Assembly (NCBI GenBank): GCA_963726435.1
Contig: CAVSCJ010000001.1
Location: forward strand, 199,208 to 263,207
From: an uncultured Coriobacteriia bacterium
GTDB lineage: Bacteria > Actinomycetota > Coriobacteriia > Anaerosomatales > PALSA-660
Length of the DNA stretch: 64,000 bases
Reading direction: 5' to 3'
The translations under genes were made by a program, and so were the position numbers. The number at the start of each line of letters is the position of its first letter. Positions within the stretch are counted from its first letter, which is position 1. Under the pieces are notes generated by a model. It was given only the letters and a program-made list of their open reading frames with translations, had not been told where the DNA came from and made no database searches. Below, piece after piece: positions 2,840 to 45,141 of this stretch.

Positions 2840-4732
2840 GTGACCGGATCGAAGGATTTCGCCCTCGGCGGCCGTCCTGTGGGCCCCGGCCACCCTGTAT
2901 ACGTCATCGCCGAGATCGGCGTGAACCACAACGGAAACCCCGCTCTAGCCCACAGGCTGGTGGACGTGGCGGCCGCAGCGAAATGCGACGCAGTGAAGCT
3001 CCAGCGGCGCTCCATGGCCGACCTCTACGTCGCGCCCCTCTTGAACGACCCCGCAGCCGCCGAACAGTCGCTTCAGTACATGCTCCCCGTGCTCAGAGAC
3101 ACCGAGCTCGCCGACGAGGACTTCGTGGCGGTCAAGGAACACGCCGAGTCGCTGGGCCTGACCTTCCTCTGCACGCCATTCGACATCCCGAGCCTCCGGT
3201 ACCTCGAGAGCCTGGGCCTCAGCGCCTACAAGATCGGCTCGCCCGACCTCACGAACCTGCCGCTCATCGAGGCAGTCGCCCGCGCCGGCAAACCGATGCT
3301 GCTCTCGACCGGCATGTCCACTCACGACGAGGTCCTCACGACCGTGGCCCTCCTGGAGGAACTCGGCGCCGTCTACGCGCTGCTGCACTGCAGCTCCACC
3401 TACCCGACGCCGTTCGAGGAGGTCAACCTGCGCTACATGGTGGGCCTTATGGATCTGGGAGTGCCAGTCGGATACTCGGGCCACGAGCGTGGGATCGCGA
3501 TCTCGACCGCGGCGGTCGCCATGGGCGCGTGCATCATCGAGCGCCACGTGACCCTTGACCGCATGATGGTCGGGCCGGACCACGCCGCCAGTCTGGAACC
3601 GGTCGGGCTGGAGAAGCTCGTGCGCGACATCCGGAATCTAGAGTCGGCCATGGGATCGGGGCGGAAGCACACCAGCCGCATGGAGGTGCTGAACCGTGAG
3701 GTGCTCGGCAAGAGCCTCTACGCATCGAGAGACATCGCCGCAGGCGAGACGATCACACGCGAGGCGATAGCCATCAAGGGCCCGGCCAAGGGGCTCTCGC
3801 CGCAGATGATCGACCAGCTGGTCGGACGCCCCGCCCCCCGTGACATCCCGGACGACGGTCTGTTCCTCGCGAGCGACCTCGGCATCGTGCCGGCTACGCG
3901 CACCACGCCGGCGCACCTGGGAATGTGGGGCTTCGTGCTCAGGACTCCGGAGACCTCGCGCATCGAGGAACTGCACCCGCGGATGGTGGAGGTGCGTCTG
4001 ACCGATCGCGACGTGCTCACGCCCCTGCCCCCTATCACCGACCACGACATCCCTCTGGTGGTCCATCTCCCGGAGTACGACGGCCGCCATCTCGTGGACA
4101 TCGCGAGTCCCACGGAGTCCGTCAGGCGCCGGTCGATAGAGTCGGTGAAGCGGGCGATCGAGCGTGCGTTGGAGATCGCGCAGCACTTCCGTCCCGGCGT
4201 GCGAGCCGTCATCCATCCCACCGCAGCGTCGATGGAGCCCGCGACCGGGTCGGCTCCCTACATGGAAGCCCTCGCACTGAGTCTGGACGAACTGGACGGA
4301 ATGGGGCTCGAGTTGCTGCCCGAGAACCTGCCGCCACGCCCATGGTACTTCGGCGGTGAATACTTCACGTGCGCCTTCATGGACCCCGAGGACATCGCCG
4401 GGTTCTGCAAGGGCACCGGCCGCTCCATCTGCCTAGACATCTCCCACATGGCGCTCTACTGCAACTCGGTCGATAGCGATCTCGTCGCCTCATGCGCCGC
4501 GCTCATGCCGTACGCGACGCATCTGCACGTCGCCGACGCGTACGGCATCCACGGTGAGGGCGCGGGCATCGGCAACGGCGACATCGACTTCGCTTCCCTC
4601 GCCCCGCTCGTGGCGTCCTACAAGGGCACCTGGATCCCCGAGATCTGGCAGGGCCACCAGAACGACTTCGCCGGCTACTACGACGCGCTCGAGAGGCTCG
4701 CTCGCGTGTGGGTGCTGCCCGACCCTTCCTGA
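2840..4732 (+). CDS. neuB: N-acetylneuraminate/nonulosonate synthase (NeuB + SAF domain) fused to a C-terminal xylose-isomerase-like (AP endonuclease 2) TIM-barrel domain
   Basis: 630-aa ORF starting at a GTG. The N-terminus VYVIAEIGVNHNGN...STYPTPFEEVNL...ERHVTLD is NeuB-like, followed by a SAF-like segment (SLYASRDIAAGETITREAIAIKGP). Residues ~345-630 (VVHLPEY...LLPENLP...CLDISHM...THLHVADAYG...GDIDF) look like a sugar-phosphate isomerase/epimerase TIM barrel. Confidence 0.85.
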   Translation: MTGSKDFALGGRPVGPGHPVYVIAEIGVNHNGNPALAHRLVDVAAAAKCDAVKLQRRSMADLYVAPLLNDPAAAEQSLQYMLPVLRDTELADEDFVAVKEHAESLGLTFLCTPFDIPSLRYLESLGLSAYKIGSPDLTNLPLIEAVARAGKPMLLSTGMSTHDEVLTTVALLEELGAVYALLHCSSTYPTPFEEVNLRYMVGLMDLGVPVGYSGHERGIAISTAAVAMGACIIERHVTLDRMMVGPDHAASLEPVGLEKLVRDIRNLESAMGSGRKHTSRMEVLNREVLGKSLYASRDIAAGETITREAIAIKGPAKGLSPQMIDQLVGRPAPRDIPDDGLFLASDLGIVPATRTTPAHLGMWGFVLRTPETSRIEELHPRMVEVRLTDRDVLTPLPPITDHDIPLVVHLPEYDGRHLVDIASPTESVRRRSIESVKRAIERALEIAQHFRPGVRAVIHPTAASMEPATGSAPYMEALALSLDELDGMGLELLPENLPPRPWYFGGEYFTCAFMDPEDIAGFCKGTGRSICLDISHMALYCNSVDSDLVASCAALMPYATHLHVADAYGIHGEGAGIGNGDIDFASLAPLVASYKGTWIPEIWQGHQNDFAGYYDALERLARVWVLPDPS

Positions 4733-4756
4733 CATCGACGACGGAAGGACCGCACT

Positions 4757-6718
4757 GTGATGCATGACGTCGCCGGGCCGCAACGTGGCGATGCGCGCCG
4801 GCTGAACGTCCTGTTCGTCAGCGGCTTCGATTCGGCCAACTACGCCACGGTGGAGATCGTTCGCGAGCTCGAGGCACGCGGGCACCGGTACACCGTGCTC
4901 GTCGAGTACGAGCAGGACTTGGTGAACAATGCGATGTTCAATGCTGCGGGCATCCCTACCACGGCGATCGCCGACTATCCGCACAGTGAGCTCGATTCGG
5001 TCGACTTCGTGTTCGCCGGGCCGCACTTGAGACCGCGGACCCGGCCTCTGGTAGCGGAGATACAGCGCCGCGGCATGTTCGTCGTCTCGCTAGCGAACCT
5101 GTTCTCGGCCGTGACTATGAACGTCGCCCCCGACCTCGCGATGACCGGCGGCACGCGCAAGTTCGCCGAGTTCGAGGCGAACGGACTTCGCTACCGGGCG
5201 GTGGCCGTCGGGAACCCGCAGTACGACCCCCTCGTGCGCGCGCGCTTGGCGCGGCGCGACGAGCCGGAGCGTCCGGTGCGTCGCGTGCTGGTGGTCGACC
5301 AGGGCGCCTACCCGCTGGGCCAGACCGGCAAGCGGCAGCTCGCGGAGACGCTCATCGCGATCGCCCGCAACAACCCCGAGCTGGACTTCCACATCAAGCC
5401 GAGGCACCTGCCTCACGAGCCCGGCGACCAGGTGCACACCATCTCGGAGCACCTCTACTCGTACCTCACTCAGACTCCCGACAACCTCACGCTGATCCAG
5501 ACGCGTGCCGTCATCGAGGAGATCCTCCCGGACTTCGACGCGATGGTCACGACGTGGAGCACCTCGCACCTCGCCGCGGTGGCGCTGGGGATCCCGCTCC
5601 TGCTTGTAGGCGGTCTCGACTCGGACGACGTCTACGACGTCCGCTGTCGCAGGGTGGCCGAGGCCTACGAGCACTTGCGAACCAGCGGCTGCGTCGTCGA
5701 CTGGCGGGAGCTGCGATCCGGCCCCGTCCCATTCGCGCGAGTCTCACCGGAGTACGAGGCGCAAGAATTCGACCCGCCCATGGCACCGGCTGCGCCCCGG
5801 GTCGCAGATATCATCGAGGCCATAGACCGCCTCCTTCTGTCGCGCGGTGCGCGGTTCGCCACCGACTTCCAACTCGACTACGCCACCTTCATGCGCGAGG
5901 TGGCGAACATGGAGACGGTCGCGGACGGCCCAGGCCCGCGCCTGGAGCGAGCGGTGCGGGTGCAGCTCAATTCGCTCCTGCAACCTCTCGTCTTCGAGAA
6001 CCGCATCATGGGCTTCGCTCTGGACATGCGGCGCATGCTCCCGGTCTGGGACCGCCGGCTCGAGCCCGGCTCAGGCGAGGACGGCGTCCGCGTGATCGTC
6101 CGAGAAGCCCGGGAGCTCGCTATGGCACTCAAGGAGGAGTACTTCGCCGCGCACCCGGACGAGGTGGCGAACGACGTGTTCTTGCAGGACGCCTACTTCG
6201 ACTGGCTGCTGGCCGCTCGGCGGTACCAGATGCTGCTGGCGTACGACGGAAGGCTCGCGGCGCCCCAAAGCCTCGAGTTCGACCGTGGTATGGCGTATCT
6301 GCGGAGGTGGCGGCCGTTCCGCGCATTGCGGCACTTCGTCGAATCCTTCAGCATCTCGTTGCAGCGGCCGGGCCGGGTGCTCAGGAAGGACAGGAACGTC
6401 AGGATCATAGTGTCCCGGGCAGACGCGAGGCTTCTGTCGCACGCGATCCTGTTCTTCCTGAACCACTACAGGAAGTACGAGGCGCTTAGCGTCATCGAGG
6501 TCCCCGCCTCGGAGAACGCGGCGGCGGCCGTCTACTACAAGATGAGGGCGCTCGTCGCACTGGGGCGGGCCGAGGAGGCCCGAGCTCTCTACGACGAGCA
6601 CAACGCGACAGTGGCCCGGACACCCGCGCCGGTGAGAAGCCGGCGCAGGAGCGGTCAGGCGGCGGTGCTGATCGCCTGGTACAAGATGCTGTTGCGCCGC
6701 TACGCCGCGCGCCTCTGA
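4757..6718 (+). CDS. Hypothetical protein: GT-B/TagF- or capsule-synthesis-like N-terminal half plus helical TPR-like C-terminal half; candidate nonulosonate transferase
   Basis: 653-aa ORF (GTG 4757 or ATG 4760, RBS GGAAGGA) 25 nt after neuB. Motifs DFHIKPRHLPHEP and DFDAMVTTWSTSHLAAVALGIPLLLVG resemble the C-terminal half of TagF/KpsS-type transferases. The tail (AAAVYYKMRALVALGRAEEARALYDEH) is TPR-like. The coding call is solid. The function is inferred from context only. Confidence 0.6.
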   Translation: MMHDVAGPQRGDARRLNVLFVSGFDSANYATVEIVRELEARGHRYTVLVEYEQDLVNNAMFNAAGIPTTAIADYPHSELDSVDFVFAGPHLRPRTRPLVAEIQRRGMFVVSLANLFSAVTMNVAPDLAMTGGTRKFAEFEANGLRYRAVAVGNPQYDPLVRARLARRDEPERPVRRVLVVDQGAYPLGQTGKRQLAETLIAIARNNPELDFHIKPRHLPHEPGDQVHTISEHLYSYLTQTPDNLTLIQTRAVIEEILPDFDAMVTTWSTSHLAAVALGIPLLLVGGLDSDDVYDVRCRRVAEAYEHLRTSGCVVDWRELRSGPVPFARVSPEYEAQEFDPPMAPAAPRVADIIEAIDRLLLSRGARFATDFQLDYATFMREVANMETVADGPGPRLERAVRVQLNSLLQPLVFENRIMGFALDMRRMLPVWDRRLEPGSGEDGVRVIVREARELAMALKEEYFAAHPDEVANDVFLQDAYFDWLLAARRYQMLLAYDGRLAAPQSLEFDRGMAYLRRWRPFRALRHFVESFSISLQRPGRVLRKDRNVRIIVSRADARLLSHAILFFLNHYRKYEALSVIEVPASENAAAAVYYKMRALVALGRAEEARALYDEHNATVARTPAPVRSRRRSGQAAVLIAWYKMLLRRYAARL

Positions 6719-15876: not shown

Positions 15877-17094
15877 CTATCGCCGGCGGCGCCGGCCCAT
15901 GACGCGCCCGCCGAACGCTTTGCGCTTCTTGCGCATCGCGAGCCGGCCCGCCCGCGGAACCGCCCGCTCACGGTAGGGGAAACCTTCGAGCTCCTCCACC
16001 GGGATCTCGGTGTCGATGAGCATCTCGATGGCATCGAGTTCGGGGAACTCGCGGATGTCGACGAAGGTGAACGCGGTCCCCGACGCCCCGGCGCGCGCGG
16101 TGCGGCCGATGCGGTGGACGTAGTCCTCCGGGTTGTTCGGCACGTCGTAGTTCACGACGTGGCTGATGCCCTCGATGTCGATCCCCCGCGAGACGACGTC
16201 GGTCGCCACCAGGACGCGGACCTTGCCTGCGCGGAACCGCTCGAGCGCCTTGGTACGCTGCTCCTGGGTCCTGTCCGAATGGATGGTCACGGTCGGGATG
16301 CCCGCGCGCTGCAGACCGAGCGCCACCGCGTCGCTGCGCTGCTTCGTGCGGCAGAAGACAAGCGTCGAGTCGAAGTCGCCGTGCGCCTCCATCAGCGCGA
16401 CCATCAGATCGACCTTCTGGGACGCGTCCACCGGATAGAGAGCCTGATGGATCAGGTCGATGGGCACGTTGGGGGGTGACACCTCGACGCGCACGGGCTC
16501 GTCGAGTGCGTTGTGGACGATCCGCAGGACCTCGGGGGCCATTGTGGCGGAGAACAGCATGGTCTGCCGCTTGGCGGGCAGGGCAGCCAAGATGCGCCGC
16601 ACGTCGGGCCAGAAGCCCATGTCGAGCATGCGGTCCGCCTCGTCGAGCACCAGGATCTCGACGCGGTCCAACTTGGCGTTGCCGCGCTTCATGAGGTCCA
16701 GAAGGCGCCCCGGGGTCGCGACGAGCAGGTCGACACCGTCTTTGAGCGCCTTGATCTGCGGATCGAGTGACACGCCGCCCACGGCTGCGAGGATCTTGTG
16801 CCCGGTATGGCTGCTCATCGCGGTCGCAAAGACCTCGGTCTGTTGGGCGAGCTCGCGAGTCGGGGCGACCACCAGCGTGCGCAGAACCCCGTCGGCCGGG
16901 GTGCGCTGCAGCGCCGGCAGCACGAAGGCGGCGGTCTTGCCGGTCCCGGTCTGCGCGCAGCCGACGACGTCGCGGCCGGCGAGCGCGTAGGGCATCGCCT
17001 CTTCTTGGATCGGCGTCGGCGTCTCATAGCCGAGCTCACGCACGCCCGCGAGGAGCGCGGGTGTCAATCCCAGTTCCTCGAAGCTCACGAGCAT
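15877..17094 (-). CDS. DEAD-box ATP-dependent RNA helicase (RhlE-like) with a basic C-terminal tail
   Basis: From the ATG at 17094: MLVSFEELGLTPALL...TPIQEEA...AQTGTGKT...PTRELA...VLDEADRMLDMGF...SAT...HRIGRTARAG, ending in an RRRRR tail. The track merges it with the upstream aldolase into a 748-aa ORF. Confidence 0.85.
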   Translation of the reverse strand: MLVSFEELGLTPALLAGVRELGYETPTPIQEEAMPYALAGRDVVGCAQTGTGKTAAFVLPALQRTPADGVLRTLVVAPTRELAQQTEVFATAMSSHTGHKILAAVGGVSLDPQIKALKDGVDLLVATPGRLLDLMKRGNAKLDRVEILVLDEADRMLDMGFWPDVRRILAALPAKRQTMLFSATMAPEVLRIVHNALDEPVRVEVSPPNVPIDLIHQALYPVDASQKVDLMVALMEAHGDFDSTLVFCRTKQRSDAVALGLQRAGIPTVTIHSDRTQEQRTKALERFRAGKVRVLVATDVVSRGIDIEGISHVVNYDVPNNPEDYVHRIGRTARAGASGTAFTFVDIREFPELDAIEMLIDTEIPVEELEGFPYRERAVPRAGRLAMRKKRKAFGGRVMGRRRRR

Positions 17095-18123
17095 CCTTCC
17101 ATCGCGGCGGGGATCGCCGCTGTGAAGCGGTCCACATCCTCTTCGGTCGTGTCCCACGAGCACACCCAGCGCACGACGACACGGTCGCCGCGCACCTCCC
17201 AGTCGTAGAAGTCGGTGACTGCGCGCAGGCGCTGCATCGCCTCGTGCGGCAGCAGGGCGAAGACCTCGTTGGCCTGCGGCTCCCAGGCCAGCTCGACGCC
17301 GGCCTCGCGAGCTCCGGCGGCCAGTCGGGCTGCCATCTCGTTCGCGTGCGAGGCCATCTCGCGCCAGAGGCTCGAGCCGTAGATCGGCGGCGAACTGCGC
17401 GCCGATGAAGCGCATCTTGCTCGCCAGCTGCCCGCCGCTCTTGCGCTCGTACGGGAAGCTGTCGGCCAGTCCCGGCGCCAGCAGGCACACGGCCTCGCCG
17501 AAGAGCAGCCCGTTCTTGGTGCCGCCGAACGAGAGCACGTCCACGCCCGCGTCGGTCGTCAGAGAGCTGATGGGCAGGCCGAGGGCCACCGCGGCGTTGG
17601 AGATCCGCGCGCCGTCCATGTGCAGGTACATCGCGTTGTCGTGAGCGAGATCGGCGAGCGCCCGCACCTCGTCCGCCGTGTAGACCACCCCGGTCTCCGC
17701 CACCTGGGAGATCGAGATCACGCGTGGCTGGACGTGGTGCATGTTGCCGTGCGCGGAGAGCAGCGGCTCGACGTCGGCCGGGCGCAGCTTGCCGTCTGCA
17801 GTGGAGAGGACGGTCACTTTGCAGCCCGTGAAGCGCTCGGGAGCGCCACACTCGTCCACGGCGACGTGCGCGGTATCGGGCGTGACGATGCAGTCGCCGT
17901 GGCCGAGCAGCGACGAGAGCCCGGTGACGTTCGCGCCGGTCCCGTTGAACACGAAGAAGACATCCGCGGCTTCGCCGACGTGCGAGCGGATGGCACGCAC
18001 GCCGCGCGCGGTCCACGGGTCGTCACCGTAGGCGTGAACGTGCCCGTCGTTCGCCTCGGCTATGGCGATCAGGGCAGCCGGATGCGCCCCCGAGTTGTTG
18101 TCTGATGCGAAGGTCCTGCTCAC
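17085..18123 (-). CDS. ltaE: Threonine aldolase-family PLP enzyme, one frameshift near 17385 as sequenced
   Basis: N-terminal 245 aa in the 18123 frame: FASDNNSGAHP...FVFNGTGANV...HMDGARISNA...DVLSFGGTKNG...KMRFIGAQFAA. The C-terminal 90 aa are in the frame of track ORF 17085..17357: (I)YGSSLWREMASHANEMAARL...VRWVCSWDTTEEDVDRF. One extra nucleotide at about 17385 separates the two parts. Confidence 0.7.
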
Positions 18124-23801: not shown

Positions 23802-26033
23802 TCACCGCACTTCCGGCTGCATCGCCGTTTCGGCCGTCTCGATTTCTGCGGGCTGCGCCTCGTTGGCCGCTTCGGCGACCGCCTCGTCCCTCGGAGGGAC
23901 CTCGCCACCTTCTTCCGGCGCGCGCGCCCATTGCGCCAGGAACGCCTCGACCGCTTCGAGCATGGCTGACTCGAGCGCGGGGGTGAGCTCCGTCGCCGCC
24001 CGCACGTCGTCCATGAGGCTCGCCCTATGGACCTCCGCATACCGGAGCAGGTCCTGCTCTAGGAGCCCGAGCCCCTCGACCGGTATGTCCTGGAAGAGCC
24101 CGCTCACGACCGCGTAGAGCACGAGCACCTCGTGCTCGAGCGGCATCGGCTCGTGCTGTCCCTGCTTGAGCAGCTCCCGGCTCCTCTCGCCGCGTGCCAG
24201 CTGTTGCAGCGTGGCCGCGTCGACCTCCGCCCCGAACTTCACGAACTGCGCCATCTCCTGGTACTGGGCCAAGTCGATACGCAGCCTGCCGGCGACCTGC
24301 TTCATGACCTTCGCCTGAGCGGATCCGCCGACTCGTGACACCGACAGGCCGGCATCCATGGCCGGGCGCGTGCCTTCGTTGAACTGCGCCGTGTCGAGGT
24401 AGATCTGCCCGTCGCAGATCGAGATGACGTTGGTCGGGATGAAGGCGGATATGTCGCCGGCCAGCGTCTCGGCGATGGGGATCGCGGTCAGCGAGCCGCC
24501 GCCCCGCTCCTCGGACAGGTGGGCGGCACGTTCCAGCAGTCGCGAGTGGACGTAGAAGACGTCGCCCGGATACGCCTCGCGACCGACAGGACGTTTGAGC
24601 AGCGCCGACATCTCCCGGTAGGTCACCGCGTGCTTAGTCAGGTCGTCGTAGACTACGAGCGCGTCCTTCCCCATCTCCATGAAGTACTCGCCCATGGCGC
24701 ACGCCGCATACGGTGCGACGTAGCGGAACGCCGGCGGTTCGTTGGAGAGCGCCACGACCACGGACGTGTACTCCATGGCCCCGTTCTCCTCGAGAGTCCG
24801 GACCGCACGCGCGATCGACGAGGCCTTCTGCCCGATCGCCGCGTAGATACACATGACCCCCGTGCCGCGCTGACTGAGGATGGTGTCGATGGCGATCGTG
24901 GTCTTGCCGATCTTGCGGTCGCCGATGATTAGCTCCCGCTGCCCCCGACCCAGCGGAACCAGCGCGTCGATGACCTTGATGCCCGTGTGCAGCGGGGTGT
25001 TCACCGGCAAGCGGTCGACGACGCCCGGAGCCTTGCGCTCCACAGGCATGTGGGACGTCGGGACGATAGGCCCCCTCCCGTCGATGGGCTGGCCCAGCGC
25101 GTTGACTATCCTGCCCATCATCGTGTCGCCCACGGGCACTGTGAGAAGGTGCCCCGTGCACTGCACGCCGCTACCCTCGCGGATGCCCTCCTCCCGGCCG
25201 AGCAGGATGCATCCGACCTTGTCGCCCATGAGGCTGAACGCCAGGCCCTGCACGCCTCCTTCGAACTCTACGAGCTCCTGGGACCCTACGTCGCGAAGGC
25301 CTGCGACGAGCGCGACACCGTCGCCGACCTCCAGGACCGTCCCCGTCTGTGTCGCGCCTTCGAGGCGCAGTTCGTGCTCGGTCTCCTCGATCGTGCCCCG
25401 GAGGAACTCGCCGACCCCCAAGGGAGTCGCGGTGCCGGCGTCCTGCCTCTCCCTGATCGTCCTCTCGAGCTCGGCGACCCACGTGTAGCGTTGGTCGAGC
25501 ACGATCCTGCGGTCCGACCCCATCTGGAGCGAGACGTTCGACTCGAGGCGCGGCTCCACGACGGTCTCGACTTCTATCTGCCTGCCCGCGGCGAGGGTGA
25601 GTTTGGCTCCGAGCGCATCCACCACGTCCGAATCCACCGGCGTCCGCGATCGCAACACCACACTGTGGCCGCCCATCTCCGCCAAGAGCCGCCCCAGGTT
25701 GCTCTCGCGGACCTCCGGCCTGACGTGCGGATCGAAGTCTGCCACGGCGTCCGCGGCCGAGCGGACCGCCTCGTCAGGGAGCGCGCCCTCCGTCGCGCGG
25801 TCCAGGACCTCCTTGAGCTCGGCGAGAGGCCGCTCGAAGTCCCACGACACGTTGCGGTGTCCGTCGATGACCAGCGACGCGGAGTGGGTCCGTTCGTCGA
25901 TGAGTTCGGTCACGCGAACGGGGCGCGCGAGAGCCGCCTCGAGATGCTCCCGCACGCTCTCCGATACGTCAGCGCCGAGCGGCACAGGAGTCCTGATGAC
26001 AGCCTCGACGGGCCGGCCCGCGGACGGAGCCAC
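23802..26033 (-). CDS. atpA: F1 ATP synthase alpha subunit with a ~215-aa N-terminal extension made of two delta/OSCP C-terminal-domain-like modules, plus an acidic C-terminal tail
   Basis: 743-aa ORF with a GTG start. The alpha core starts near residue 215: GTVLEVGDGVALVAGL...GDRKIGKTTIAIDTI...PGREAYPGDVFYVHSRLLERA. Residues ~10-75 and ~133-205 each resemble the delta C-terminal domain (..V.R...P....V...L...L.....V.....D/E.R......G......D....AEL...). There is no separate atpH between b' and alpha. Confidence 0.8.
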   Translation of the reverse strand: MAPSAGRPVEAVIRTPVPLGADVSESVREHLEAALARPVRVTELIDERTHSASLVIDGHRNVSWDFERPLAELKEVLDRATEGALPDEAVRSAADAVADFDPHVRPEVRESNLGRLLAEMGGHSVVLRSRTPVDSDVVDALGAKLTLAAGRQIEVETVVEPRLESNVSLQMGSDRRIVLDQRYTWVAELERTIRERQDAGTATPLGVGEFLRGTIEETEHELRLEGATQTGTVLEVGDGVALVAGLRDVGSQELVEFEGGVQGLAFSLMGDKVGCILLGREEGIREGSGVQCTGHLLTVPVGDTMMGRIVNALGQPIDGRGPIVPTSHMPVERKAPGVVDRLPVNTPLHTGIKVIDALVPLGRGQRELIIGDRKIGKTTIAIDTILSQRGTGVMCIYAAIGQKASSIARAVRTLEENGAMEYTSVVVALSNEPPAFRYVAPYAACAMGEYFMEMGKDALVVYDDLTKHAVTYREMSALLKRPVGREAYPGDVFYVHSRLLERAAHLSEERGGGSLTAIPIAETLAGDISAFIPTNVISICDGQIYLDTAQFNEGTRPAMDAGLSVSRVGGSAQAKVMKQVAGRLRIDLAQYQEMAQFVKFGAEVDAATLQQLARGERSRELLKQGQHEPMPLEHEVLVLYAVVSGLFQDIPVEGLGLLEQDLLRYAEVHRASLMDDVRAATELTPALESAMLEAVEAFLAQWARAPEEGGEVPPRDEAVAEAANEAQPAEIETAETAMQPEVR

Positions 26034-35150: not shown

Positions 35151-38036
35151 CTACCGGACCCGGATCCTGATGATCCTGCTTACGCTCGCGGCGTTCGCCG
35201 CGCTGGTCGCAACACGGATGCGGTACGCGTAGGTGCGACGAGCATGGGGTCGGACACGGACCAGGTATCGACCGGTCGAGCTCACGGACACGCGCTTCAC
35301 AGTGATCCACCTGTGGCCGACCTTTCGCTGAAGGACTGCGCGAACGACCGGCGGACTCACGATGGCGGTGCTCTCTGCGCCTTCGACGGTCGCGACCATC
35401 GCCGCGCTCGCCGTGGCGCGAGCACCCGTCGTCACAGTTCCGCTCATCGAGACGAGCCTGTTGCGGTGGACCGTGCGGCGTGAACTCTTGACTGTTGCGC
35501 GGGCCCTCACTCTCACGTTGACGACGCCTGAAACGACACCCGCGTCGGCGGTCGACACGCGGTACTCGGTCGTGACCAAGGGAGTCACTGCGAGACGGGC
35601 GGCTCCGCTCGAGTCGGTCATCAGCGTCGCGACCTGGACCCAATCAGAGGTCGCGGTCTTGCCCTCGACGCGCACCGTCATGCTGGAGGCCGGGCTGACC
35701 GCGACACTCAGAACGGCGGTGTGGCCGTAGTCGAGGATCGTGGAAGAGGAGCGCAACGTCACGGTTGACGCCGACGGCACGACCGGAGCCGGAGGCTCGA
35801 CCGGAGCCGGGGGCTCGACCGGAGCCGGGGGCTCGAGCTGCGGAGCCGGGGGCTCGACCGGAGCCGGGGGCTCGACCGGAGCCGGGGGCTCGACCGGAGC
35901 CGGGGGCTGTATGGGGATGGGAGGCTCGGTCGGAGCCGGGGGCTCGACCGGAAGCGTCAGGTGGATCGAGTGGGACCGCGCGAGGACGCCTCCGGAAGTG
36001 CTGCGGTACTGGGCGGCGACCACGTAGTCTCCGTCAGCCGCCGGCAGAGTGACCTGTGCGGCGGAGACGTAGGCCGTCCAATCACTCCAGAAGCTGCTGT
36101 CGACCTGGAAGCGCATCTCGGAAGCGTTGCTCGCCGAAGAGGCCACGGGGATGACCACGCTGCTGACCGTCGAGGCGCCACCAGCGAGAACGAAGTCGCC
36201 GGTCGGCACCACGGGTGCCGGAGCCAAGAGCTCGACGGTGTCCGACACCTGGAGCGTGCCGGCGGCGTTGCGGTACTCGACGCGTACCGTCTTGACGCCG
36301 GGAGTGCCGGCGAGCGTGATCTGCACGGACGCAGTGTAGCCGGTCCACGCTCCGAAAGTACCGCTGCCGGGATCGATGCGCATATCGATGGCACCAGTCA
36401 CCGCGCTGGCGACCGCGACGTCAGGCGAGCTGACCTGCGCGGCGCCTCCGGCGACCGTCATCGTGCCAACCGGGGCGACAGGGGCGACCTTCAACAGGAT
36501 GATCCCGTCGCGGGGCTGCAGGGTGACGGCCGTGACGAGGCTGCCGTCGTTGACCGTGGGAGCCTGGGTGCCGTGGATCTTGCGGAAGGTCCCGCCGAGC
36601 TGCACGGTGACCGCTGCCGTGGTCGGGTTCACGAGCGCGATGCCATTGGCGTAGTCGCGACGCCAGGCATTCCCGACCCTGGTCGCCGAGCCCGCCGGCT
36701 GACCGAGGTAGCCGCGGCCGGCTCCCGCGTTGTCGTACTCGTCGTACCAGTAGATGCCGTTCACGGCGTGGCCGCTGGATGACAGCGCGTAGGAGAAGTA
36801 GCCGTTGTTCATGAGCGTCGAGCACAACCCATAGCGCATCAGCTGGTAGTCGTTGGCGGCGCCATAGGTCTGAATCATCGTGAGGTTCGGACCGACCGCG
36901 TTGGCGATCCACTCGGGATAGGAGGCGCGCGGGTAGTCGTACGGGCCGACGAAGATGTAGTCCCACCATTCGGGCCTCAGGGTAGAGTACGGGAACTCCT
37001 CGAAGATGTTGCCATTGAGCGAGTAGTTCCTCATGTTGCCGTTGCCGATGAGGATCTTGCTCCCGCACGCTACGCGCAGCGCGTCGCCATAGGCCTCGGC
37101 GCCGGCGTTCCATGCGGTGTTGAACGACGCGTAGCCATCGGTGACCGGGATGTTCGTGCGCATAAGATCGATCGACCGGTTGTTGCCGCCAGTGACGAAC
37201 CACGACGTGTTGCCTTCGAGGCAGTCGATGAGCAGACCGTCCCAGCCGGCGGACTGAAGAACGCTCTGGCCCCGGCGCACGTTCCAGTCACTCCATGTCT
37301 CGGGTCCGTGGCCCACGTCGGCCTTGGGGCAACTGGTGGTGAGGTTCATCGTGATCGCACCTGTCCAGTTGGCCACGACGGAGGCGATCCGGGCCCCGGC
37401 GGTGTGAGACGCCGGCGGGTTCACAGGCCCACGTGCCATCACGGTCAGGCTGGAGGAGCCGATGGCCTCGACGTGCATGAGCTCGTGATCGACCAGGACC
37501 ATCTCGCCGACGGCGAACTTGGTGACGTCCGCGACCGGGATCGAGGTCGTCGAGGCGGTGATACCGGAGGTGAGCGTCGAACCGACCTGAGTGAGCATCC
37601 AATCCGTCGATGCGCTGCGGACCTCTTCGTTCAACCTGGCGTCCCAAGCTGAGCCCGAGAGGCCGTAGCTCAGTTCGCGCGCGTTGGTGTTGGCCAAGAT
37701 GATGATGCTCGGGTTGGCTGCGCGCAGCTCCGCGATGTGGTCGGAGTCCTGGCTCTGGAGTCCGATCCAGTCGCATCGGGCACGATCCGCGACCGGCTGG
37801 GTGTCGTTGCTGGGCCACCAGATGGCGAGGCGCGGGAACGCCGGGTTGGTCACAACTGCATGCGCGGCCCGGGGCCCCACGAACAGGACCGCGAGGAACG
37901 CGACAACCAGAAGGAACGTGCCTGCCCGAAAGACCGTGGATCGCGTCTCGCAGGCGTGGGTCTCGGTGATGTGATGCACGGTGTGCGCCTCGCAGGCTCT
38001 CCGGAACGCAACGGACCCGATCTCCTCCTGCGTCAA
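35151..38036 (-). CDS. Large secreted protein: GHL15-type putative glycoside-hydrolase-like TIM-barrel domain, two Ig-like modules, a Pro-rich PAPVEP linker, and a C-terminal beta-rich domain
   Basis: 961-aa ORF with a signal/TM segment (FLLVVAFLAVLFVGPRAAHA). The core is PAFPRLAIWWP...CDWIGLQ...GIYWYDEYDNAGAGRGYLG. The family assignment is tentative. The start codon is uncertain (TTG at 38036 has no SD). It is a paralogue of 42962..45071. Confidence 0.7.
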   Translation of the reverse strand: MTQEEIGSVAFRRACEAHTVHHITETHACETRSTVFRAGTFLLVVAFLAVLFVGPRAAHAVVTNPAFPRLAIWWPSNDTQPVADRARCDWIGLQSQDSDHIAELRAANPSIIILANTNARELSYGLSGSAWDARLNEEVRSASTDWMLTQVGSTLTSGITASTTSIPVADVTKFAVGEMVLVDHELMHVEAIGSSSLTVMARGPVNPPASHTAGARIASVVANWTGAITMNLTTSCPKADVGHGPETWSDWNVRRGQSVLQSAGWDGLLIDCLEGNTSWFVTGGNNRSIDLMRTNIPVTDGYASFNTAWNAGAEAYGDALRVACGSKILIGNGNMRNYSLNGNIFEEFPYSTLRPEWWDYIFVGPYDYPRASYPEWIANAVGPNLTMIQTYGAANDYQLMRYGLCSTLMNNGYFSYALSSSGHAVNGIYWYDEYDNAGAGRGYLGQPAGSATRVGNAWRRDYANGIALVNPTTAAVTVQLGGTFRKIHGTQAPTVNDGSLVTAVTLQPRDGIILLKVAPVAPVGTMTVAGGAAQVSSPDVAVASAVTGAIDMRIDPGSGTFGAWTGYTASVQITLAGTPGVKTVRVEYRNAAGTLQVSDTVELLAPAPVVPTGDFVLAGGASTVSSVVIPVASSASNASEMRFQVDSSFWSDWTAYVSAAQVTLPAADGDYVVAAQYRSTSGGVLARSHSIHLTLPVEPPAPTEPPIPIQPPAPVEPPAPVEPPAPVEPPAPQLEPPAPVEPPAPVEPPAPVVPSASTVTLRSSSTILDYGHTAVLSVAVSPASSMTVRVEGKTATSDWVQVATLMTDSSGAARLAVTPLVTTEYRVSTADAGVVSGVVNVRVRARATVKSSRRTVHRNRLVSMSGTVTTGARATASAAMVATVEGAESTAIVSPPVVRAVLQRKVGHRWITVKRVSVSSTGRYLVRVRPHARRTYAYRIRVATSAANAASVSRIIRIRVR
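35781..35952 (-). repeat. In-frame tandem 18-bp repeat (GGAGCCGGGGGCTCGACC on + strand) encoding (PAPVEP)n linker
   Basis: About nine near-identical 18-bp units are visible, translating on the minus strand to PPAPVEPPAPVEPPAPVEPPAPQLEPPAPVEPPAPVEPPAPV. Confidence 0.85.
36500..37630 (-). repeat. Dispersed repeat copy A (~1.1 kb, high nucleotide identity to 43540..44662)
   Basis: Long identical runs are visible, for example gtgacgtccgcgaccgggatcgaggtcgtcgaggcggtgataccggaggtgagcgtcgaaccgacctgagtgagcatcc in both copies. Boundaries are approximate. Confidence 0.8.
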
Positions 38037-38077
38037 AGCCGAGGGGGGACCGGGTCCGTGTTAGTGTTCGGAGCCCG

Positions 38078-38178
38078 CTTCCGACGGCAGCCCGGCTGTC
38101 ATGGGGAGTCGTGACTCCCGGTAGACCCGTGGCTTTGCGAGGCCGGCTTTCGCCGACTGTGCCTTTGTCGCGGTGAGG
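38078..38178 (-). promoter_or_regulatory. Candidate c-di-GMP-I (GEMM-I) riboswitch aptamer in the leader of the 961-aa secreted protein gene
   Basis: Minus-strand RNA: CGACAAAGGCACAGUCGGCGAAAGCCGGCCUCGCAAAGCCACGGGUCUACCGGGAGUCACGACUCCCCAUGACAGCCGGGCUGCCGUCGG. It has the GEMM-I hallmarks: GGC / 6-bp stem / GAAA tetraloop / stem / CGCAAAGCC, then ACGGGUCU...GACAGCCGGGCUGCCG. Compare Vc2: GGGCAAACCAUUCGAAAGAGUGGGACGCAAAGCC. Confidence 0.6.
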
Positions 38179-38425
38179 TTAGCCGCTGCGTCGCTGTTTC
38201 AAGGACACTAGGAGTATCGGGAGGCAGCCGTACGTTCTTTAGCACGGAGACGCGCGTTTCTACAGGCGGTAGGTGACGGCGTCGCGGCCCCTGCATCCGC
38301 AGTCGAGGGTGCGCACGCGCAAGGTGTCGCATGCCGTATCCTTCGGGCGGGACGTTCCGGGACGCGCCGGCGGACAGCGGTGCACCTCAGCCGGCATCGG
38401 CGCGCGCTTCGGCGAGGGGGAGGCG

Positions 38426-39340
38426 TTGGATAGTCAAAGAGGAAGCGAGCCGGAGCGCCAGGGCCTCAAGAAGGCCACGAAAGCGGTCGCCTTCTGGATC
38501 GTGCGGTACACGGGGGCAGCGTTCCTTGCGCGCCACACCGCCCAGAGCCGGCGCGTCACCATACTGGCGTACCACGATCCGGATCCCGACACCTTCGAGA
38601 GCCATCTGGCCCTGCTGAAGTCGCTGTACTCGGTCATCCCTCTGGAGGCCTTCCTGTCAGCCCGGCGCGTGGGCAACCTGCGCGGTCTGCCGAGGCGTCC
38701 GCTCGTCATCACCCTCGACGATGGGTGGGCGGGCAATGCCCGTCTGCTCCCCGCTCTCAAGCGCCACGGAGTCCGGCCGACAGTGTTCGTTTGCACCTCG
38801 ATCGTCGGCACGAAGAGGCACTACTGGTGGACGCATGCCCCGGACCCGGCCGATCGGGAGATCCTGAAGCGGACTGCAGAGGACGACCGCCTGCGGGCGC
38901 TCGCGTCGTCCGGATTCGCATCCGATACCGAGTACGCGGACCGACAGGCGCTGTCAGCCGATGATCTCGCAGAGATGAACCCTTGGGTCGACTTCCAGTC
39001 CCACACTCGTACGCACCCTATCCTCCCCTGCTGCTCGGATGAGCGCGCGGCCTCGGAGATCGCCGGCTCGGCGGAGGACATCGAGCGCCTCACGGGTGTC
39101 CGTCCACGTGCGCTCGCCTACCCGGACGGGGCCCACTGCGAGAGGGACGTCGAACTAGTTCGGCAAGCCGGCTACGAGTGCGCCATCACCATCGTTCCGG
39201 GCTCCAACGATGCGAAGACAGATCCCTGTCGCCTCAAGCGAATCATCATCAGCGACGGGGCGGGATCCACCGAGCTCGTCGCGCGGGCGAGCGGCGTCTT
39301 CGGGACCCTCGTGGAGTCGATGCACCGACTGTTCCGCTGA
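38426..39340 (+). CDS. Polysaccharide deacetylase (CE4/NodB family)
   Basis: TTG at 38426 after GAGGGGGAGG. Motifs RPLVITLDDGWAGN and FQSHTRTHPIL, with a TM-like N-terminus (AVAFWIVRYTGAAFLA). Confidence 0.8.
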   Translation: MDSQRGSEPERQGLKKATKAVAFWIVRYTGAAFLARHTAQSRRVTILAYHDPDPDTFESHLALLKSLYSVIPLEAFLSARRVGNLRGLPRRPLVITLDDGWAGNARLLPALKRHGVRPTVFVCTSIVGTKRHYWWTHAPDPADREILKRTAEDDRLRALASSGFASDTEYADRQALSADDLAEMNPWVDFQSHTRTHPILPCCSDERAASEIAGSAEDIERLTGVRPRALAYPDGAHCERDVELVRQAGYECAITIVPGSNDAKTDPCRLKRIIISDGAGSTELVARASGVFGTLVESMHRLFR

Positions 39341-41805: not shown

Positions 41806-42909
41806 TCAGGCCACCGCGGTCCGAAGCGCCTCCACGACGTACTCGATCTGTCCTCCGGTCAGATACGGGTGCATGGGGAGCGACAGGATGCGCCCGGCCA
41901 TCCCCTCCGCCACGGGAAAGTCACCGGGCGCGTATCCGAGATACCGGTAGGCGGGAGTGAGATGCAACGGCACCGGGTAGTGGATCCCGCTGTCGATGCC
42001 CGCGGAATCGAGCGCGGCCCTGACGGCATCGCGCCCATCCACCTGGACTACGTAGAGGTGATAGACGTGCTCGACGTCATCGCGATGGCCGACCGGGTCG
42101 ACGCCCGCGACCCCGGCGAGCAGACGGTCGTAGAGTGCGGCGGCGGCGCGCCTCTTCGCGTTGGATTCCACCAGATAAGGGAGCTTCACGGACAGGAATG
42201 CGGCCTGGAGGTTGTGGAGCCGGTCGCAGTACCCGACCACCGCGTGCGTGTACTTGTCAGACTGGCCGTGATTGCGCAGGAGCGCGATCTGGTCGGCGAC
42301 GCGCGCGTCGTTCGTGGTGACCGCGCCACCGTCTCCGAGAGCGCCCAGGTTCTTGCCGGGGTAGAAGCTGAACGCAGCGGCCGCTCCCAGGCAGCCCACG
42401 GGGCGCCCTTCCCAAGTGGCTCCGTGGGCCTGGCAGGCGTCCTCGACCACGGGTATCCCCCGGTCCACGGCGAACTCCCGGATCGCGCGCATGTCCGCGG
42501 GTTGTCCGTAGAGGTGCACGGGCACGATGGCCCGGGTGCGATCGGTACACGCGTCCGCGAGCTTCTCCGGGTCCATGTTCGCCGTCTCGGCCAAGCAGTC
42601 AACGAAGACGGGCGTCGCGCCGATGTGGCTGGCGGCCTCGGCCGTGGCGATGAACGTGTTGACCGGCATCACGACCTCGTCGCCCGGACGGACACCGACG
42701 GCCGTGTACGCTAGCTTCAGGGCGTCGGTACCGGAGCTGACGCCGATCGCGCGACTGCACCCGCACAGTCGCGCGAAGGCCGACTCGAAATCGGCGACCT
42801 CGGGACCGAGCGTGTAGGCCGCGCGGTCCACGACCGAGCGGAACGCCGCGTCGAACTCGGGCAGAAGCTCCCTGCCCTGGCTTTGCAGGTCGACGAACGG
42901 GATCCTCAT
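41806..42909 (-). CDS. DegT/DnrJ/EryC1/StrS-family PLP sugar aminotransferase (WbpE-like)
   Basis: 367-aa ORF: FVDLQSQ...GPEVADFE..FA...SSGTDALKLA...VPVHLYGQPADM...EDACQAHGA...FSFYPGKNLGALGDGGAV. Confidence 0.9.
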   Translation of the reverse strand: MRIPFVDLQSQGRELLPEFDAAFRSVVDRAAYTLGPEVADFESAFARLCGCSRAIGVSSGTDALKLAYTAVGVRPGDEVVMPVNTFIATAEAASHIGATPVFVDCLAETANMDPEKLADACTDRTRAIVPVHLYGQPADMRAIREFAVDRGIPVVEDACQAHGATWEGRPVGCLGAAAAFSFYPGKNLGALGDGGAVTTNDARVADQIALLRNHGQSDKYTHAVVGYCDRLHNLQAAFLSVKLPYLVESNAKRRAAAALYDRLLAGVAGVDPVGHRDDVEHVYHLYVVQVDGRDAVRAALDSAGIDSGIHYPVPLHLTPAYRYLGYAPGDFPVAEGMAGRILSLPMHPYLTGGQIEYVVEALRTAVA

Positions 42910-42961
42910 GGCTCTTCCACCCCTCCAGCCGGCCCCGGGATACGTGCCGCCCGCCGGCTGC

Positions 42962-45071
42962 CTACCGGACCGAGACTCGGACGGTGGCGCTCTTCGCAGC
43001 GAAGTGACTCCTGTCGGCCGGGACGAAGACCCGGTAGGAGAAGGATCCGCGCTTCGAGAAGGCGACCTTGGTGGAGTAGCGCCCGGAGAGAGTCCTGAGC
43101 AGCTTCACGGTCCTCCATCTGCCACCCGTATAGCGCTGCAGGCTGACCGTGACACGGCCCGGATGGCTGACCGTGCCGCTGAACACGACTCGGCCGCCCC
43201 TCGACACGCTCTTCCTCGAGGCCCTGAGCGCCACTCGTGGTCGTACGCCGACCTTCAGCGAGTTTGAAACGTCGCCGGTGTCGACTAGAACGACACGGTA
43301 CTCGGTCGTCACGACCAGTGTGCGTGACAGACGGGCCAAGCCGTCCGCTCCGGTCGTCAGTGTCGCGACCGATCGCCACGAGGGCGCCGCGGCTGTCCGC
43401 TGCTCGATGTGAACGGAGACGGCCGACCCCGGCGCGACGATGACTTGCAGAGTGGTTCCCCGACCGTATTCGATCGCGGTGCTCGAGGCCTGCAGGCCTG
43501 CGGCGGGAGCCGCATTCGGGCTGATCCGCAACAGGACGATGCCGTCGCGCGGCTGCAGGGTGACGGCCGTGACAACGCTTCCGTCGTTGACCGATGGGAG
43601 CCTGGGTGCCGTTGATCTTGCGGAAGGTCCCGCCGAGTTGCACTGTGACCGCTGCCGTGGTCGGGTTCACGAGCGCGATGCCATTGGCGTAGTCGCGACG
43701 CCAGGCATTCCCGACCCTGGTCGCCGAGCCCGTCGGCTGACCGAGGTAGCCGCGGCCGGCTCCCGCGTTATCGTACTCGTCGTACCAGTAGATGCCGTTT
43801 ACGGCGTGGCCTGCGGAGGACAGCGCGTAGGAGAAGTAGCCGTCGTTCATGAGAGCCGAGCACAGACCGAAGCGCATCAGCTGATAGTCGTTCGAGGCGC
43901 CGTAGGTTTGGACCGTCGTGAGGTTCGGAGCGGCCGCGCTCGCGATCCACTCGGGATAGGAGGCGCGCGGGTAGTCGTACGGGCCGACGAAGATGTAGTC
44001 CCACCATGAGGGCCTAAGGGTAGAGTACGGGAACTCCTCGAAGACGGTGCCGTTGAAGTCGTAGTCCCTCATGTTGCCGTTGCCGATGAGGATCTTGTCC
44101 CCACACGCTGCGCGCAGCGCATTGCCATAGGCCTCGGCGCCGGCGTTCCATGCGGTGTTGAACGACGCGTAGCCGTCCGTGACCGGGATGTTCGTGCGCA
44201 TAAGATCGATCGAGCGGTTCTCGCCGTTCGTGGCCAGCCACGACACATTGCCTTCAAGCCCGTCGATGAGAAGACCGTCCCAGTCAGCGGACTGAAGAAC
44301 GCTCTGGCCCCGGCGCACGTTCCAGTCGCTCCATGTCTCGGGTCCGTGGCCCACGTCCCGCTTGGGACAACTGGTGGTGAGATCCATCGCGATGGAGTCG
44401 TGCCAGTGGGTCACCACTGAGGCGATCCGGGCCCCGGCGGCGTGAGACGCCGGCGGGTTCACAGGTCCACGTGCCATCACGGTCAGGCCGGAGGAGCCGA
44501 TGGCCTCGACGCGCATGAGCTCGCGATCGACCAGGACCATCTCGCCGACGGCGAACTTGGTGACGTCCGCGACCGGGATCGAGGTCGTCGAGGCGGTGAT
44601 ACCGGAGGTGAGCGTCGAACCGACCTGAGTGAGCATCCAGTCCGTCGAAGCGCTGCGAAGCTCGACGTTGAGGGGGCTGTCGTAGTCCCCAAGACTGTAG
44701 TTCACCTCGCGAGCGGCGGTCGGACCCAGGACAACGATGTTCGGGTTCAGCCCGCGCAGATCGGCGATACGACCGGCGTCCTCGCTCCGCAGCGCGATCC
44801 AATCGCATTGCGCGAGACTCGCGAGCGGCTGCCTGCTGGCATCGGGCCACCAGATCGCAAGCCGCGGGAAGGCGGGTCGCGCGACTGCTGCGCGGGCCGC
44901 GACGGGGCCACGAAGCGGGAGCGTGAGGAATGCCATGGTCAACAGGAACGTGCCGACCAACAGGACCACTGGTCGCGGCCCGGACGTGTGGGGCTGGGTA
45001 GCCGATCGCATCTTCGTTGTCGCGAGACCTCCATCGCTGCGGCGTTCGCTCGGAAGGATAGCACTGCGCAT
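42962..45071 (-). pseudogene. Paralogue of the 961-aa GHL15-type secreted protein, frame broken by a 1-nt insertion at ~43594
   Basis: The N-terminal ~490 aa (track ORF 42906..45071) align closely with 35151..38036. After ...GTFRKINGTQAP the frame is lost. The remainder (...ISPNAAPAAGLQASSTAIEYG...VRVSVR) is in track ORF 42962..43531. Against the paralogue, ttgaccgAtgggagcctgg here compares with ttgaccgtgggagcctgg, which pinpoints the extra base. Confidence 0.7.
43540..44662 (-). repeat. Dispersed repeat copy B (core of the paralogous secreted-protein gene)
   Basis: Same orientation as copy A and about 7 kb away. By eye, roughly nine of ten encoded residues are identical over the core. Boundaries are approximate. 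Confidence 0.8.
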
Positions 45072-45141
45072 CTGACCGTGCTGCCGCCACGCGAGACCGT
45101 GGCGACGGGCGGACGCGTTCCGGTGCAGAGCGAGCCGGTGG

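Follow-up and report, generated by a model that had tools for sequence, protein, structure and literature searches.

Class-I riboswitches for cyclic di-GMP (c-di-GMP), also known as GEMM-I, are collected in Rfam family RF01051, with Vc2 and Vc1 of Vibrio cholerae as type examples. In Vc2, the nucleotides G20, A47 and C92 contact c-di-GMP (PMC4744006, PMC5888326). The riboswitch Bc2 is reported to precede the gene for Cap, a collagen adhesion protein of Bacillus thuringiensis (PMC4933901), and Bc1 is described as having a long, multi-element expression platform with rho-independent terminators (PMC11218506). An element of this type is described here from an uncultured Coriobacteriia bacterium, in a stretch of 64,000 nucleotides (the window; GCA_963726435.1, contig CAVSCJ010000001.1, positions 199,208 to 263,207). 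It lies at 38082..38172 on the minus strand, which also carries all other leader features given below, in the leader of a gene of the GHL15 family. Judged by its sequence, it is a conserved, canonical-type class-I (GEMM-I) c-di-GMP riboswitch and as such a further example of a well-known kind of switch. The literature searched contains no description of GHL15 as a target of c-di-GMP-I riboswitches, or of the class in a Coriobacteriia-like lineage.

The element resembles Vc2 and Vc1 in its two hairpins on a short P1 helix, in the counterparts of G20, A47 and C92 and of C44/G83, in the GAAA tetraloop that caps the first hairpin, and in its position in the 5' untranslated region on the strand of the regulated gene. 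Unlike these examples, it belongs to an environmental Coriobacteriia lineage of high GC content, has a degenerate tetraloop receptor, and is followed by a platform of about 105 nt that is terminator-less and includes a long-range leader helix. With Bc2 and Bc1 (PMC4933901, PMC11218506), it shares the predicted arrangement of a single class-I aptamer through which c-di-GMP controls a matrix-related protein, secreted or at the cell surface. Bc1 is described with rho-independent terminators (PMC11218506), whereas none was detected between 37800 and 38500 in the window, where translational control appears the more likely mode.

The whole window was scanned with Rfam 15 (cmscan) at gathering thresholds and with clan competition. 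The sole match at gathering level runs from 38172 to 38082 and covers the full length of family RF03167 (model positions 1-80 of 80), with 61.7 bits against a gathering score of 59 and an expect (E) value of 3.9e-12. RF03167 belongs to clan CL00126 (c-di-GMP-I), and a second, overlapping CL00126 match was also above its own gathering score and was suppressed by clan competition. The first-pass annotation, made from the DNA letters, had proposed a GEMM-I-like riboswitch for c-di-GMP and a search with RF01051. The clan is indeed matched above gathering, while the best model for the window is the variant c-di-GMP-I-GGC (RF03167) and not RF01051. The c-di-GMP reading is nevertheless supported by the clan match, by orthologues that reach 64-69 bits on RF01051, and by an A at the A47 equivalent. 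The leader sequence quoted in that annotation is present on the minus strand exactly as read, with every GEMM-I core feature in place: GGC, the 6-bp stem capped by GAAA, the CGCAAAGCC junction and the second hairpin.

The extent of the aptamer (38082..38172) rests on the Rfam match, on covariation in ten leaders and on a home-built covariance model (R1), which was made from the orthologous leaders and scores the window aptamer at 116.5 bits. P1 is formed by 38172-38169 with 38086-38082 and is followed by GGC (38163-38161), whose first nucleotide is the G20 equivalent, and by the P1a hairpin (38157-38142), which has a 6-bp stem and its GAAA loop at 38151-38148. The segment CGCAAAGCC (38139-38131) supplies the equivalents of C44 (38139) and A47 (38136), P2, the second hairpin, spans 38134-38089 with a distal hairpin at 38119-38104, and the C92 equivalent is 38087. 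G 38163, A 38136 and C 38087 are unchanged in 10/10 leaders. The C44/G83 nucleotides, namely C 38139 and the G of the AG bulge at 38096, are likewise unchanged in the leaders. The GAAA tetraloop is present in the window and in 8/10 leaders overall. The aptamer is almost certainly real, and its ligand is very probably c-di-GMP, a reading adopted because the canonical G20, A47 and C92 are all present.

Ten leaders were compared, that of the window (W) and L001, L002, L004, L023, L024, L025, L026, L029 and L030. The relatives are a Coriobacteriia metagenome-assembled genome from a genome collection (L001; 66% amino acid identity), metagenome contigs, and contigs reached via protein homologues. 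The aptamer thus stands upstream of GHL15 orthologues in nine further contigs, environmental and Coriobacteriia-like. Eight of the ten leaders form a close group, at 57-73% protein identity, and the other two, L025 and L026, are diverged (48%). On the ten-leader alignment the GEMM-I structure is 97.1% paired, compared with 24-48% when the partners are slid against each other; seven pairs of the aptamer have changed on both sides, compared with 0-3 in the slid controls, and the covariation score of the aptamer was reached by none of 500 shuffles. P1a varies from GUCGGC/GCCGGC to GCUCGC/GCGGGC and CCCCGC/GCGGGG, and the base of P2 from C-G to U-A. Conservation of the leader exceeds that of the N-terminal coding sequence that follows it.

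GHL15 homologues at greater distance and the short paralogue (L003, L005-L022 and L031-L037) were searched as well, and no aptamer was found upstream of them, with R1 either. In the window itself, the paralogue at 42906-45071 is preceded by a gap of 70 nt (45072-45141) in which neither the Rfam scan nor R1 finds a riboswitch element, in agreement with the first-pass annotation. In L026, the riboswitch (469-561) precedes the first of two tandem paralogues with GHL15 and DUF5648 domains (662-2773 and 3001-5691), an arrangement that suggests a single sensor serving both genes. The metagenome contigs L028 and L029 encode identical proteins, but about 45 nt that cover the linker and the aptamer's 3' half are missing from L028. 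When L028 2848-2945 is compared with L029 1854-1956, this deletion is seen to be flanked by short GAAG(G)A repeats; either the sensor has been lost in a natural variant, or the gap arose in assembly.

The start codon of the regulated gene is GTG 37979, up to which the nucleotide identity of the leaders is near-perfect and right after which it falls. This codon aligns with an ATG in L024, and in L004 an ATG sits 2 nt upstream of the position. Its Shine-Dalgarno (SD) sequence, assigned from the leader alignments, is GAGG (37988..37991), 8 nt upstream of the start codon; the SD block CCUGCGAGG is unchanged in seven of the eight close orthologues, with ACUGCGAGG in L002. The open reading frame (ORF) from TTG 38036 is an open-frame artefact, and indels between the hairpin H1, described below, and GTG 37979 are not multiples of three. 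The first-pass annotation had discussed TTG 38036 as the start and GGAGGAG at 38028-38022 as an SD-like site within the ORF. The motif is where it was said to be, but it lies in the 3' arm of H1, is structural and is not the SD of the gene, and translation starts from GTG 37979 with an SD of its own. Use of GGAGGAG with TTG 38011 or TTG 38036 was considered and rejected: TTG 38011 is out of frame with GTG 37979, and for a TTG start the aligned codon in the orthologues is CUG or missing, with intervening indels that are not multiples of three.

Aptamer and start codon lie 95-105 nt apart in each of the ten leaders, and the 5' leader measures about 230 nt. Hairpin H1, of about 49 nt (38011..38059), contains CCCCCCUC (38048-38041) within its 5' arm and GGAGGAG (38028-38022) within its 3' arm. 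It is predicted in 10/10 leaders, with a GC-rich stem of about 19 bp, and ends 31 nt before the start codon. Its lower stem contains compensatory changes (columns 205-217 paired with 237-249 by RNAalifold), as at 212:242, which is AU in five leaders, GC in three and GU in two. The heptamer GACGCAG is found again in the H1 loop (38035-38029), and a pseudoknot of this loop with the 3' flank was ruled out by geometry, given the stem of about 19 bp.

Aptamer and H1 together lie within a further structure, the long-range helix P0. Its 5' strand GACGCAGCGG (38183..38192) lies upstream of the aptamer, and its 3' strand CCGUUGCGUU (38005..38014) just after H1, overlapping the last H1 bases. P0 was predicted unprompted by RNAalifold from the ten-leader alignment (columns 64-71 with 250-257). 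The register test found 92% of its cells paired, compared with 26-67% for slid registers, and three pairs have changed on both sides; among the close orthologues, the 3' strand alternates between C and U opposite G. The counterparts in the diverged leaders are GCAUCGC:GCGAUGU in L025 and GAGCAUC:GAUGCUU in L026, the registers of both having been placed manually from flanking anchors.

Between aptamer and H1, the linker GAAGCGGGCUCCGAACACUAAC (38060..38081) can pair with 38004-37992. In the minimum free energy (MFE) folds of the platform of W, L001, L004, L029 and L030, this pairing extends H1 down to CCUGC adjoining the SD. Three pyrimidine tracts can pair with the SD: a core segment of the aptamer, CCUC 2 nt 5' of P1, and a stretch that follows H1. 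The core segment, GCCUCGCA (38136..38143), is a perfect 8-bp complement of the SD region UGCGAGGC (37994-37987) and thereby a candidate anti-SD. The core:SD duplex is present in the unconstrained MFE structures of W and L001, and L004 retains the pairing through changes from G:C to A:U and from C:G to U:G. No terminator-like site was detected in 37800-38500, and the H1 tail UUGCGUUCC has no T-tract.

On these sequence features, control of translation initiation is the most likely mode, with a probability a little above one half; it is favoured because the platform ends in a near-invariant SD block and has no terminator. Given translational control, an ON switch is likewise slightly preferred. 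Without ligand, the unlocked aptamer core GCCUCGCA would pair with UGCGAGGC and mask the SD. With c-di-GMP bound, the core would be locked into the binding pocket, the linker would extend H1 to the base adjoining the SD, and the SD would be freed. In 10/10 leaders, folding the aptamer is calculated to cost 2.4-9.3 kcal/mol in stability relative to the unconstrained ensemble, so that ligand binding could plausibly tip a thermodynamic switch. The combined reading of a functional c-di-GMP-I riboswitch that acts on translation as an ON switch in the GHL15 leader is the favoured one and has about an even chance of being correct in all its parts.

Several observations weigh against this combined reading. 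At the level of the aptamer, CAAA replaces the GAAA tetraloop in two orthologues (L002 and L004), the tetraloop receptor, of the CUAAN...YAUG type, is degenerate in the window (CUACC...CCAUG), and the RF01051 score of the window itself was masked by clan competition. In the platform, the core:SD complementarity is lost in the diverged L025 and L026, and the duplex has a terminal A.C mismatch in four close orthologues. Thermodynamic modelling with constrained folding leaves the SD mostly paired in the free ensemble and in the bound one alike, and the opening energies of the ribosome-binding site differ by at most about 3.5 kcal/mol between the two states, with a sign that is inconsistent among orthologues. 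Finally, canonical terminators composed of a hairpin and a T-tract are no commoner in the window between 20001 and 60000 than in shuffled sequence. Because canonical terminators are not enriched there, the missing U-tract is weak evidence against termination at H1, and the organism may use atypical terminators or Rho.

The strongest rival to an ON switch is an OFF switch built on the same aptamer and ligand, in which the ligand-stabilised P1 would close a three-way junction of P1, extended H1 and a helix between the SD and the CCUC tract at 38178-38175, just 5' of P1, so that c-di-GMP would mask the SD. When the aptamer is constrained to fold, the SD pairs with this tract at a probability of 0.9-1.0 in five of the eight close orthologues, and the geometry is tight: CCUC is 2 nt away from P1, the linker helix is separated from P1 by 3-4 nt, and GAGG directly adjoins the linker helix (0 nt). 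Tract and SD also co-vary loosely in the diverged leaders, as UUCCCC/GGGGAA in L025 and UCCC/GGGA in L026, but these registers were picked by eye, and in L025 the tract overlaps the 5' strand of P1, which implies the opposite logic. The CCUC:SD helix has just 4 bp in the window type, and opening energies are not consistently different between the states. An OFF switch would be coherent with sequestration of the sigma factor by c-di-GMP and RsiG (PMC8325347), if the sigma-WhiG-like promoter considered below is real. The folding calculations in the ten leaders leave ON and OFF undiscriminated, and overall the OFF switch is judged to be a minority possibility, at about one chance in four. Less likely still is that the same aptamer uses H1 to act on the transcript, whether as a U-poor intrinsic terminator, through access of Rho or through transcript stability; read-through would then depend on whether P0 or H1 forms in response to the ligand. 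The GC-rich stem of about 19 bp is kept in 10/10 leaders, some tails contain a moderate number of U residues (e.g., UUGCGUU and GAUGUCUCUU), local terminators may be atypical since canonical ones are unenriched in the segment, and P0 overlaps the base of H1 and could serve as an anti-terminator. Against such a role stand the lack of any detected terminator-like site in 37800-38500, the end of H1 31 nt before the start codon with an SD block following, as suits a translational platform, and the lack of any complementarity of the aptamer to an H1 arm that is kept in the two types of leader.

Two further alternatives concern the aptamer itself. It could belong to the variant class c-di-GMP-I-GGC (RF03167), whose altered pocket suggests a ligand other than c-di-GMP. 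RF03167 is the top-scoring model not only for the window but also for L001, L002, L023, L025, L026 and L029 (59.2-71 bits), all above the gathering score of 59, and the blocks AAAGGCA, CGAAAG and GACAGCCGGGCUGCC are nearly identical in model and window. In L004, L024 and L030, however, the same element scores best on RF01051 (64.4, 69.5 and 69.1 bits; gathering score 35). The label flips with the distal portion of P2, which is variable; RF01051 has a stem there and RF03167 no structure. The 'GGC' of the family name presumably denotes positions 20/47/92, as reportedly defined by Weinberg et al. 2017 (PNAS), and the Rfam consensus is consistent with this assumption; a 2017 paper in NAR makes no mention of the variant. 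The RF03167 consensus reads ...GACGCGAAgCc... where the window has ...CUCGCAAAGCC..., and the sole mismatch in this block is an A for G at the A47 equivalent, the naming position. This A-for-G exchange (CGCAAA(G) compared with CGCGAA in the model) is found in 10/10 sequences. Membership in the variant was therefore rejected in spite of a score above the RF03167 threshold (61.7 compared with 59), and the element is classed as canonical c-di-GMP-I because its ligand nucleotides are canonical and three orthologues score best on RF01051; a variant class is accordingly very improbable. The c-AMP-GMP (3'3'-cGAMP) class, GEMM-Ib, is marked by A at position 20 (PMC7266159) and was rejected as well, as 38163 is G in 10/10 leaders. 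Least probable of all, to the point of being hardly credible, is a GEMM-like sequence that has decayed or arose by chance and has no regulatory role. The non-GNRA loop in two orthologues, the degenerate receptor and the loss of the aptamer 3' half in L028 would fit decay, but the E value of 3.9e-12, a near-invariant sequence despite protein identities of 48-73%, and compensatory changes in every variable helix do not.

Best-hit Rfam annotation would label this orthologous element, with its canonical binding-site nucleotides, as a variant. Censuses of 'variant' riboswitches that rely on best hits only will be contaminated by such canonical elements.

Upstream of P0, the leader is preceded by the motif TAAAG-N16-CCCGATA (38215..38241), with C or G as first letter of the -10 part among the leaders, which resembles a promoter of the sigma-28/FliA/WhiG type and has a predicted transcription start near 38207. 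It is the sole match in the window, where 0.01 would be expected, and in about 350 kb examined the motif at the given spacing is confined to riboswitch leaders. The conservation of all ten leaders begins at T(A/C/T)A(A/G)-N17-CCGATA. When L028 is added to the ten aptamer-bearing leaders, T(A/C)A(A/G)-N17-CCGATA is found at the matching place in 10/11, L004 with TTAG missing the -35 pattern. CCGATA is unchanged in all leaders, and the -35 varies between TAAA, TAAG, TCAA and TTAG. The spacer is one nucleotide longer than what is taken here to be the consensus spacing. The flagellar/WhiG consensus has TAAA as -35 and GCCGATAA as -10 (PMC8325347). The window sequence, TAAA-N16-CCCGATAC, has two mismatches in the -10, and the leaders overall have one or two mismatches to GCCGATAA. 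As a functional sigma-28/WhiG-type promoter, the motif is a lead rather than a finding. A sigma-70 promoter with TTGAMA (38202-38197) as -35 was rejected, as there is no consistent -10 at 16-18 nt and the scan was blank.

If the promoter is real, P0 lies inside the transcript, because transcription would start near 38207. Sequestration of sigma-WhiG by RsiG-c-di-GMP is described in other Actinobacteria (PMC8325347). Both the sigma-WhiG/RsiG switch so described and the riboswitch would be c-di-GMP outputs in Actinobacteria, and the TAAA...CCGATA motif resembles the consensus; unlike the riboswitch, which acts as RNA, the sigma-WhiG/RsiG switch acts on a protein, the anti-sigma factor (PMC8325347). 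A doubtful extension is that two c-di-GMP inputs are stacked on GHL15, a WhiG/FliA-type promoter and a riboswitch on the mRNA, with an unusual terminator-less platform built on P0. If true, the stacked inputs would amount to feed-forward (or band-pass) control over the timing of an enzyme that cuts the matrix.

The regulated gene (35151..37979, minus strand) encodes 942 amino acids from GTG and matches Pfam GHL15 (PF14885) with 44.9 bits (cut-off 27). This family is among the hypothetical glycoside hydrolases defined by Naumoff and is uncharacterised (PMC5765458). The product has a signal peptide (starting MHHITETHACETRSTVFRAGTFLLVVAFLAVLFVGPRAAHA), a TIM-barrel glycanase-like domain, two modules of about 85 amino acids and a basic C-terminal region. 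A proline-rich linker of PAPVEPP repeats (35775-35951, minus strand) lies between the two modules and the Arg/Val-rich basic C-terminal region. The first-pass annotation had expected a GHL-type secreted protein with Ig-like modules; family and signal peptide are borne out, whereas Pfam detects no Ig-like domains in the protein, its C-terminal half included. A sequence search of the PDB returned only weak transthyretin-like matches. An AlphaFold (AF2) model of residues 43-520, with a confidence (pLDDT) of 93.7, consists of a TIM barrel and a C-terminal beta domain. Its best PDB matches are GH168 endo-1,3-fucanases (E 4e-13), and the hydrolase domain of PelA is also matched. The best guess from this model is an endo-acting enzyme of polysaccharide processing.

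The riboswitch gene is located within a large polysaccharide locus of the Wzx/Wzy type, in a window of 67% GC. The AtpD protein encoded in the window has its nearest relatives in Coriobacteriia and Actinobacteria metagenome-assembled genomes, and look-ups of the exact DegT protein and of protein P0001 returned no record. Such genes surround it, in line with the exopolysaccharide (EPS) setting proposed beforehand. They include Wzz/tyrosine-kinase, Wzy, GT4 glycosyltransferases, NeuB, MBOAT, a DegT aminotransferase, a hexapeptide acetyltransferase, DUF4012, radical-SAM enzymes and, as divergent neighbour, a polysaccharide deacetylase. Synteny is kept in L024, L028 and L030, in the order short GHL15 paralogue, DegT, DUF4012, acetyltransferase, (deacetylase), riboswitch, long GHL15 and GFO/IDH/MocA. 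No GGDEF motif was found in the 64-kb window. With this element, the known range of class-I c-di-GMP riboswitches would take in Coriobacteriia-like Actinomycetota from the environment that are uncultured, as well as the uncharacterised GHL15 family in a Wzy-type locus. As a functional lead, GHL15 is probably a c-di-GMP-timed glycanase that processes exopolysaccharide or remodels the matrix. The conserved leader, with its promoter-like motif, P0, H1 and competing anti-SD-like tracts, offers a compact test case for terminator-less platforms in high-GC bacteria.

Two other ORFs on the minus strand of the window were noted for their domains. One of 748 amino acids (15877-18123) combines an N-terminal Beta_elim_lyase domain, threonine-aldolase-like, with a C-terminal DEAD-box helicase; the two may be fused, or two separate genes may share an uninterrupted frame. 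The other, an ATP synthase alpha-type ORF of 743 amino acids (23802-26033), has alpha domains that begin only near residue 230; the N-terminal extension may stem from fusion with a delta or b-like subunit, or the ORF may have been called too long.

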